In this document: positions 37,224 to 58,374 of the stretch, in pieces
Layout: each line of letters starts with the position of its first letter
How positions within the stretch are numbered: position 1 is the stretch's first letter
Assembly: GCA_002352545.1 (NCBI GenBank)
Contig: DEIO01000017.1
Location: 4,631-68,630, forward strand
DNA length: 64,000 bases
Reading direction: 5' to 3'
Origin: Patescibacteria group bacterium UBA2772
GTDB taxonomy: Bacteria; Patescibacteriota; Minisyncoccia; Moranbacterales; DUUL01
The notes under the pieces: generated by a model
The model's database searches: none
Told to the model about the DNA's origin: nothing
What the model saw: the letters and a program-made list of their open reading frames with translations, nothing else
Translations under genes and position numbers: made by a program

Positions 37224-37634
37224 ATGATTACTTTTGGAAAAAATATCTTAAAAAATAATGTAGTGATAGATTTTATTAAAAAGTTTGTTTTTCTTTCGTC
37301 TCTTGTTTACCTCCTTTGTTTCGCGGGAGAATCGATTTTGCCAGGGATTGTAATTGAGATTTTTAATTTTAATCTATTACTTTTTATCATTGTCGGAATG
37401 ATGACATTTTTAATCTTTTCCAAAGATAAGAGCGCTAATATTAAAGTTAATTTGAAAAATCAAAAGAAGATTTTAATAGCATTAATTTTGATATTTATTT
37501 TTACACTTTTTATAGTTTTGTATAAAGTTTCTCTATTTGAAACTTTTATATATACAGTTTTGTTATTGATTTTAATGGTTCAATTTAGGGATATATTCAC
37601 AGGTAGCAAGAAGAAAAACCCTAATAGCCAGTAA
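37224..37634 (+). CDS. Hypothetical small polytopic membrane protein
   Basis: 136 aa, 3-4 hydrophobic helices. 4 nt after the previous stop. Confidence 0.55.
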   Translation: MITFGKNILKNNVVIDFIKKFVFLSSLVYLLCFAGESILPGIVIEIFNFNLLLFIIVGMMTFLIFSKDKSANIKVNLKNQKKILIALILIFIFTLFIVLYKVSLFETFIYTVLLLILMVQFRDIFTGSKKKNPNSQ

Positions 37635-37640
37635 AAATGC

Positions 37641-37668
37641 TTGACAAAAAAATGTCATGGTATAAAAT
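37641..37668 (+). promoter_or_regulatory. Candidate sigma70 promoter with no CDS downstream
   Basis: TTGACA-16 nt-TAAAAT, starting 7 nt after the stop of CDS 37224..37634. Confidence 0.4.
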
Positions 37669-37674
37669 ATCATA

Positions 37675-37780
37675 ACATTTAAAGTCGAATGTTGGTACTA
37701 CACCGCTTATGATTTTGGTAAGGTAACTCCCTCCTATCCCTTTCCATTTCTCATTAGCGGTGTAGTGTCTTTTTGTTTTT
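37675..37780 (+). ncRNA. Candidate ~100-nt small RNA (long-range hairpin with pyrimidine-rich interior plus U-tract)
   Basis: ACTACACCGCT (37697-37707) pairs perfectly with AGCGGTGTAGT (37756-37766). The 48-nt interior contains CTCCCTCCTATCCCTTTCC. Followed by GTCTTTTTGTTTTT. The next gene (pth) is convergent. Confidence 0.3.
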
Positions 37781-38360
37781 AGTTAAACTCATTCATTGTT
37801 TTTTCCATTCCATGTTCTATAAAACACTTGATACACTCACAACAAGAAGAGATAATTTTTTTTAGTTCTTGTTGTTCTTCTTTCGAAAAATTTGAAAGTA
37901 CAAATTTTTCAGTAGGTATGTTTTGCCTAGAAAGCCCAGTTGAAATCCCGATTCTTAAGCGAGAAAAATCCTTAGAATGAAGATGTTCAATTATTGATTT
38001 TACTCCGTTATGTCCACCTGCTCCTGAGTTTTTGGATATCTTTATTTGTCCAAAAGGTAGGTCGAGATCATCATGGACAATTAGAATATTGGAAAGATCA
38101 ATATCAAAATATTTTTTTGTAGCTAAAGTTGGAATGCCTGATAGATTCATAAATGACAATGGTTTGATAAGATAGATGTTACCACTATCTTTTATTTTTG
38201 ATAATTCTACATTAAGTTTTTTATTAAAACTGAAATTTTTAATGGATATTAAATTGAGATTTTTTAAGAGTTCTTCCAAAACCATAAATCCGATATTGTG
38301 CCTACTTTCTTTGTAATTATTTCCTGGATTTCCGAGCCCTACAATTAAAAAATTTTCCAT
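37779..38360 (-). CDS. pth: Peptidyl-tRNA hydrolase
   Basis: LIVGLGNPG..Y..SRHNIGF, GGHNGVKSI. Confidence 0.93.
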   Translation of the reverse strand: MENFLIVGLGNPGNNYKESRHNIGFMVLEELLKNLNLISIKNFSFNKKLNVELSKIKDSGNIYLIKPLSFMNLSGIPTLATKKYFDIDLSNILIVHDDLDLPFGQIKISKNSGAGGHNGVKSIIEHLHSKDFSRLRIGISTGLSRQNIPTEKFVLSNFSKEEQQELKKIISSCCECIKCFIEHGMEKTMNEFN

Positions 38361-57750: not shown

Positions 57751-58374
57751 ATGGTAATGAAAGAAAGATGCTCAATTTGTTGTTGGCTACCGATTCTTTG
57801 GTTTTTGTATACCATTGAAGCTTTGCCACTTTTGTTATATCTGATTATTATTGCTGGTTTTTATGAGGTCAGGGTACGCAACAAGAAAGTAACAAAATGG
57901 TCATTAATAGCATATTTCCACATAGTTGGATTGTCGTGGCTTTTGGCGATGTTACCACAGGAAGTTTGGTTTGTGGTTATGATTGCAGTTGTTAATGATG
58001 CCGCAGCCTTGTTTGGTGGTAAATATTGTAACTTCACTGCCTTTATGCGTTGGCATATTTTTCCCATGAGTCCCAACAAGACTCTAGGAGGTTTTATCTA
58101 TGGTGTTGCAGCCGGCAGCGCTATTGGATTTTATTTAGTGGAGCTATTTAATTTTCCACACGGGTATAAACTTATGATTATTCCTTTGTGCTTAGCATCA
58201 GTAATCGGTGATTTAATTGAAAGTAAATTTAAACGAGTAAATAAAATTAAAGACTCAGGAGAAGGACTCTTTACTGAAAAACTGCTTTATGGACATGGTG
58301 GAATATATTGTAGGTTTGACGCACTGGCATTTACTTGTCATGTGTGGGCAATTTTAACATTTATTCTAATCTAA
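57751..58374 (+). CDS. cdsA: Phosphatidate cytidylyltransferase (short)
   Basis: C-terminal signature SKFKRVNKIKDSG....GHGGIYCRFDAL. Polytopic. Confidence 0.75.
   Translation: MVMKERCSICCWLPILWFLYTIEALPLLLYLIIIAGFYEVRVRNKKVTKWSLIAYFHIVGLSWLLAMLPQEVWFVVMIAVVNDAAALFGGKYCNFTAFMRWHIFPMSPNKTLGGFIYGVAAGSAIGFYLVELFNFPHGYKLMIIPLCLASVIGDLIESKFKRVNKIKDSGEGLFTEKLLYGHGGIYCRFDALAFTCHVWAILTFILI

Follow-up and report, generated by a model that had tools for sequence, protein, structure and literature searches.

A very probable small RNA gene of Moranbacteria, convergent to pth, whose long hairpin displays an anti-Shine-Dalgarno-like loop

Between a gene for a membrane protein and the convergent gene for peptidyl-tRNA hydrolase (pth) in a Moranbacteria (CPR) genome lies an interval, 37641-37780, in which a promoter-like sequence, a hairpin and a U-tract follow one another, and the question it raises is whether these elements make up a gene for a small RNA or serve only to end the transcripts on either side. 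All coordinates given without a contig name refer to the window, which is the whole 64,000-nucleotide stretch of DNA that was analysed, and the host genome (G000) has a size of 1.2 Mb and a G+C content of 33.6%. The initial annotation had read the interval as a candidate trans-acting small RNA (sRNA), and had offered as the alternative a bidirectional terminator with a chance promoter match. To our knowledge, almost nothing has been published on the regulatory RNAs of CPR/Patescibacteria. Based on the comparative sequence evidence set out below, we find that the interval is very probably a real and previously undescribed small RNA gene of about 105 nt in these ultra-small bacteria.

The upstream ORF encodes a membrane protein of 136 aa (37224-37634), and 7 nt beyond its stop codon begins, as first described, a promoter consisting of a -35 hexamer TTGACA (37641-37646, + strand) and, after a 16-nt spacer, a -10 hexamer TAAAAT (37663-37668, + strand). 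All four genomes of the genus have the identical -35 hexamer, and with 11 of 12 positions matching, this promoter ranks at the top of the 28 promoter-like sites found in the 6 kb that were scanned (35-41 kb). Judged from the promoter spacing, transcription is predicted to start at about 37675. At the other end, the stem is followed by GTCTTTTTGTTTTT (37767-37780), which, also as described initially, overlaps the stop codon of pth (37779-37781 in a gene spanning 37779-38360, minus strand), and here the U-tract of the putative intrinsic terminator occupies 37770-37780 on the + strand. A G+C-rich hairpin and then a U-tract are indeed what defines an intrinsic terminator, and both are present; nonetheless, this label leaves both promoter and loop unaccounted for. 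As regards coding potential, the sRNA contains just unconserved ORFs of 5-7 codons.

Folding of a 113-nt stretch gave a predicted free energy of -34.4 kcal/mol, as compared with -15.6 +/- 2.9 kcal/mol for shuffled sequences (z = -6.5, with none of 200 shuffles as good). The 11-bp perfect stem reported earlier, in which ACTACACCGCT (37697-37707) pairs with AGCGGTGTAGT (37756-37766) around 48 nt, is present, though it turns out to be longer than first read, with both fold and covariation pointing to an outer stem of 14 bp (5' arm 37694-37707 and 3' arm 37756-37769, + strand). The 48 nt inside, which had been taken for an open and CU-rich interior, are instead predicted to be mostly paired, and form an interrupted inner helix (5' strand 37709-37723; 3' strand 37739-37754, which contains CCUUUCC; both + strand) that is capped by a 15-nt apical loop, UAACUCCCUCCUAUC (37724-37738, + strand). 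In other genera, this inner helix is nearly perfect, and the outer and inner parts become one hairpin of 25-36 bp. Within the loop lies the motif UCCCUCCUA (37728-37736, + strand). Hence, of the earlier proposal that CCUCC/UCCC motifs are exposed, one part stands, as an anti-SD-like CCUCC is found in the predicted loop, while the other part falls, as pairing takes up the greater part of the CU-rich core; only CUCCCUCCUAUC from that core sits in the loop, and CCUUUCC is paired and varies between genera. Ahead of the outer stem, a short genus-specific 5' hairpin of 7 bp (AACAUUU / AAUGUU; 37674-37693, + strand) is predicted, and a C-G pair in it is replaced by U-A or U-G in alignments within the genus.

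A BLAST search recovered the entire unit, from promoter to U-tract, from the three remaining genomes of the genus, with an identity of about 82%, as against just 58-67% for their Pth proteins, and a diverged copy was recovered in one other genus. A covariance model (R1), built from five sequences, then located exactly one forward-strand copy in 25 of the 27 family genomes and in all 13 of the 13 genera, with the reverse-strand matches being the identical hairpins at scores 60-70 bits lower. In every one of the 25 copies, the fold is a 25-36-bp hairpin topped by a 12-15-nt loop, and a U-tract comes after it. Between genera, the sequence of the stem is wholly replaced; the loop motif UCCCUCCUA stays constant in all of the 25 copies except that of one genome (G013), which has UCCCUCCUUA. 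Across the 25 genomes, compensatory changes occur in 20 of the 21 outer-stem pairs, and 92.9% of the aligned cells are paired, as against 32-58% when the partner strand is slid; none of 500 shuffles matched the observed values.

The strand on which the unit functions can be read from three biases. Among the stem pairs, there are 88 G-U pairs versus 11 A·C mismatches, the latter being what G-U pairs of a minus-strand RNA would look like. The 10 nt past the hairpin hold on average 7.4 T residues on the + strand and 4.4 on the minus strand of the 25 family copies. Likewise, within 130 nt upstream, 22 of the 25 copies show a + strand promoter with a TTGACA or TTGACT hexamer and at least 10 of 12 matches, whereas for the minus strand the count is 0 of 25. 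Together, the G-U excess, the U-tract bias and the promoter bias argue for a functional RNA on the + strand, and these strand and transcription signals make a chance promoter untenable. The distance from the -10 hexamer to the hairpin ranges from 11 to 72 nt in the family, such that the length of the leader differs between genera.

With the unit conserved in 25 of 27 genomes, its stem pairs covarying and its wobble pairs assigning it to the + strand, an independent sRNA gene is borne out. On the other hand, we regard it as extremely unlikely that the locus is a plain (bidirectional) terminator serving pth and the upstream gene for the membrane protein, beside which a promoter arose by chance. 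Such a reading has in its favour that a hairpin and a U-tract lie directly after one gene and abut pth, but the promoter persists in 22 of 25 copies despite an upstream gene that changes from genus to genus, the loop is invariant above a freely changing stem, and both the 25-36-bp stem and the 12-15-nt loop far exceed what a terminator needs. At the level of sequence comparison, the locus is thus established as a gene with its structure, its strand, its single copy, its conservation throughout the family and its linkage to pth.

The last of these, linkage to pth, also leads beyond the family. No copies outside the family were found with the R1 and R2 covariance models, and other families of the same order were therefore reached through pth synteny, by inspecting the DNA beyond pth. 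Four of these families (f2, f4, f7 and f12) were seen to have an RNA convergent to pth that starts from a TTGACA promoter of its own and combines a long closing stem with a hairpin carrying CCCUCCU(A/U) in a 10-15-nt loop. In comparison with the single long hairpin of the first family (f1; 24 of 25 copies pth-linked), the forms in f2 and f4 (pth-linked in 4 of 4 genomes each) have a second hairpin and a separate terminator, that of f12 (1 of 1 genome) has three hairpins in a multiloop inside the long closing stem, and among those of f7 (3 of 6 genomes), two are a single long hairpin and one (G101) has a small extra hairpin. The core CCUCCU is common to the pth-linked RNAs of all five families. 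No such RNA was seen adjoining pth in f3, f5, f6, f9, f10 and f11, each represented by one genome. Since the f2 and f4 forms possess their own terminator, termination cannot account for the conserved loop, and this counts further against the plain terminator. As a separate matter of gene order, many families of the order have rpsU (encoding bS21) at a distance of about 4-5 kb from pth (e.g., G027, G029, G037, G038, G046 and G053), and, where this was checkable (G027), on the side of pth opposite the sRNA.

This recurrent arrangement raises the possibility that the RNA is tied to pth itself, as a cis-antisense regulator of the lcp-pth transcript that would act via read-through duplexes, RNase III cleavage or transcriptional interference, and whose hairpin would double as the pth terminator. 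In line with this, 24 of the 25 family loci have pth as the adjoining convergent gene while the upstream neighbour varies between genera, the same layout recurs in four further families, the U-tract overlaps the pth stop codon, and in many copies the 5' base is A-rich, a trait of bidirectional terminators. However, the overlap amounts to a few nucleotides, the f2 and f4 forms have the separate terminator and up to about 170 nt between RNA and pth, and the invariant loop is left unexplained. Nor does pth offer the loop an SD to pair with, as none was found upstream of it in 22 genomes, and for this reason pth was also rejected as a target. We consequently take a regulator tied to pth to be quite unlikely.

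A different identity is suggested by the shape of the RNA. A single-copy and rod-shaped RNA is tempting as a replacement for the SRP RNA where RF00169 is missing, and RF00169 was detected in 0 of 27 family, 0 of 121 order and 0 of 151 phylum genomes. Yet Ffh and FtsY are absent as well: neither PF02978 nor PF00448 is found in the host genome, tblastn with Escherichia coli Ffh gave no match there, and a true SRP54 GTPase domain is missing from the 101 phylum genomes sampled. Because both proteins are lacking and SRP loss has been published for many CPR bacteria (PMC8080830), we rejected the SRP-RNA reading.

What, then, might the loop pair with? Its core, CCUCCU, is the anti-SD motif and resembles the 3' tail of the 16S rRNA in this very genome, which retains a normal anti-SD and ends in GAUCACCUCCUUUCU. 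With regard to the assembly, just the last 15 nt of the 16S gene are present, as the first 15 nt of contig C4 (minus strand) at a contig end, and the remainder of the rRNA operon is missing. SD sequences are scarce in the host: by a rough count with crude start-codon calls, GGAGG occurs at -18 to -4 of about 1.6% of the 833 long ORFs, and GGAG or GAGG precedes 5.6% of the long ORFs versus 4.7% in a control window, the start-codon calls again being crude. The genes with a strong SD form a short list, namely bS21 (C14:19470), HU, two type IV pilins, several secreted proteins and a CdsA-like gene. The host is in this respect reminiscent of Bacteroidetes, among which rpsU is the SD-led exception. 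That phylum is described in PMC7797042 as largely without SD sequences but with the anti-SD retained, and in CPR both the loss of bS21 and the loss of the anti-SD motif vary between lineages (PMC9297842).

In the reading that we favour, tentatively and with a little less than even confidence, the RNA is an Hfq-independent regulator that pairs with a few SD-led mRNAs. It would be transcribed from its sigma-70-type promoter into a short leader followed by a single long hairpin that doubles as an intrinsic terminator, and the 12-15-nt apical loop would display UCCCUCCUA, a near copy of the anti-SD core CCUCCU. Hfq was not found in the host genome, and an open C-rich loop of this kind could pair without it to GGAGG-type purine tracts. 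The pairing sites would be the RBSs of the minority of SD-led mRNAs (those for bS21, HU, the type IV pilins, the secreted proteins and the CdsA-like protein), and a duplex at the RBS would block binding of the 30S subunit. Blocking at the SD by C-rich loops has precedents in RsaE/RoxS, RNAIII and the Cuckoo/CcsR sRNAs. As an anti-SD-like loop has few possible mRNA partners in this genome, specific regulation is plausible.

The in-silico target searches, for their part, were negative and returned no conserved target. In five genomes, the 9-nt complement of the loop motif, TAGGAGGGA, is no commoner than a reversed control, and its sole occurrence in one of them (G009) is the gene itself; for want of enrichment over the reversed pattern, a regulon of perfect 9-nt targets was rejected. 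The native SDs, AAGGAGGU, pair over 9-10 nt with the 16S tail and over about 6 nt with the sRNA loop, and given this better fit to the tail, the ribosome should outcompete the sRNA. Furthermore, the invariant U and UA that flank the loop core are not accounted for by generic SD pairing.

Several individual candidates were also tried. The CdsA-like membrane-protein gene lies in the window at 57751-58374 and has a rare strong SD, AAGGAGGG; the one SD-led gene with 12-nt complementarity is the CdsA-like gene in G003. As a conserved target, it was nevertheless rejected, being present in only 6 of the 27 family genomes and having SD flanks that do not co-vary with the loop. A target in the ITS or pre-rRNA was dismissed as well, as the site concerned, AGGAGGGA, falls within repeated coding sequence at the opposite end of contig C4 and not in the ITS. 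The best long duplexes in the genome, of 16-17 bp with CCCUCCUAUCCCUUUCCA, fall at C3:72311 and C3:77897, where a small AbrB-like ORF, present in duplicate, has its C-terminus and stop codon, but they are not conserved in G001 or G003 and so are treated as chance. These two small AbrB/SpoVT-like ORF copies (...VTIPIEIVRELKWREKQKVTVKRVRGGVLIKDWKG; L116:690-950 and L117:520-830, corresponding to G000 C3:72.2 kb and 77.9 kb) differ in state and setting, in that one adjoins a type I restriction-modification methylase gene and one appears frameshifted. Elsewhere, in G024 (L073:1400-1600 and 2000-2169, and L085), we noticed tandem units of about 40 nt, each with a short CCCUCC...GGGAGG hairpin and a purine-rich linker, and linkers such as UUAGGAGGGAUUUA are complementary to the sRNA loop.

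Nine invariant nucleotides for which no conserved complement was found keep the pth-linked reading alive, and likewise another one, in which the loop is a decoy of the 16S 3' tail that binds or titrates a tail-recognising factor rather than mRNAs. Candidate partners would be bS21 with bS18/bS6, the KH domain of Era, an enzyme of maturation or modification, or a tail-cleaving nuclease or toxin, and PMC10582724 and PMC7797042 do describe Era and the bS21/bS18/bS6 pocket as binders of the tail. Between genera with Pth proteins of just 40-48% identity, none of the nine loop nucleotides changes, a constancy that exceeds what SD pairing needs, and the CCUCCU core that the five families have in common equals the anti-SD motif (PMC9297842). 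Even so, the flanks of the loop are unlike those of the true tail (UCCCUCCUA vs CACCUCCUUU), and bS21 was undetected in g8, g13 and most of g5, all of which carry the RNA, though this protein is short and its detection weak. The co-occurrence of bS21 with the sRNA shows no clean correlation. On balance, a tail decoy seems to us unlikely. The broader proposition, that the RNA would be a dedicated mimic of the 16S tail and not an mRNA repressor, retained next to pth throughout an order of CPR bacteria that preserve the anti-SD while making little use of SD, whether as a decoy that buffers bS21 or Era or by soaking up phage RBSs of the UAGGAGGGA type, we hold to be similarly doubtful.

The phage side of this proposition comes from a CRISPR array of the host genome (contig C26, about 155400-156700, minus strand), which has a 36-nt repeat, ATCTACAAAAGTAGAAATCTAATATATGGATTAGAG, and some 22 spacers. 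Two overlapping spacers match one protospacer, and this includes an RBS, UAGGAGGGA, together with an AUG. Over 9 nt, the RBS is exactly complementary to the invariant loop, and with the host being SD-poor, the RNA could act as a sponge for the strong SD sites of invading phages or plasmids. Still, the match is one coincidence, noticed post hoc, whose chance we ourselves put at roughly 0.01, and neither the protospacer in viral or metagenome contigs nor the loop sequence in any viral contig was found. Phage-borne copies of the sRNA were sought too, and rejected, with none in viral or metagenome contigs. We look upon the sponge as very unlikely.

As to what the RNA means for the wider lineage, CPR/Patescibacteria comprise a large share of bacterial diversity, and the present host genome is one without Hfq and SRP. 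The RNA family is well defined, in that it is testable by covariation, single-copy, and furnished with its own promoter and terminator, and it is conserved throughout one family (13 of 13 genera), has modified forms in at least four more families, and has its place beside pth. Moreover, an anti-SD core appears to be displayed in a host with only a small and special group of SD-led genes, bS21 among them. The family may thereby provide an entry point into how translation initiation is controlled in SD-poor lineages, and into why such lineages retain the anti-SD.

Among known RNAs, no family of Rfam 15 matches the sRNA at E values up to 10, and the pth-linked forms of f2, f4, f7 and f12 are unmatched at E values up to 1. 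The initial annotation had likened the RNA to RsaE/RoxS, though a cmscan of 37550-37850 at E values up to 10 gave only a chance match to SNORD41 and does not place it in RF01820. In RsaE/RoxS and in Staphylococcus aureus RNAIII, unpaired C-rich motifs pair with G-rich SD regions independently of Hfq, and the seed may sit in the terminator hairpin. These RNAs, however, have several UCCC/CCCC motifs, belong to Firmicutes and control defined regulons, whereas the Moranbacteria RNA lacks the multiple C-rich motifs of RsaE/RoxS, having a single 9-nt motif, and shows no similarity to it in sequence or by model. With bidirectional terminators, it shares the stable hairpin and U-tract between convergent genes and, in many copies, the A-rich 5' flank, but it departs from them by its own conserved promoter, its 25-36-bp stem, its invariant 12-15-nt loop and its being a single-copy unit. 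Together with the C-rich loops of RsaE/RoxS and RNAIII, the nearest analogues in function are the Cuckoo RNAs of Alphaproteobacteria (CcsR1-4, alpha-r14 and NfeR1), for which PMC4615179 describes highly variable stems and a conserved C/U-rich anti-SD-like loop motif, CCUCCUCCC. Cuckoo RNAs and the Moranbacteria RNA alike stand alone as genes, equipped with a promoter and a terminator, and both combine variable stems with one conserved anti-SD-like loop motif. Where the Cuckoo RNAs have 2-4 short adjacent hairpins, each with CCUCCUCCC, the Moranbacteria RNA has one motif hairpin, either as one very long hairpin or inside a closing stem, with UCCCUCCUA in its loop, and it comes from a different phylum and lacks an Rfam match. 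By the tests made, the sRNA family is a member of no known family, yet it is one of a familiar kind.
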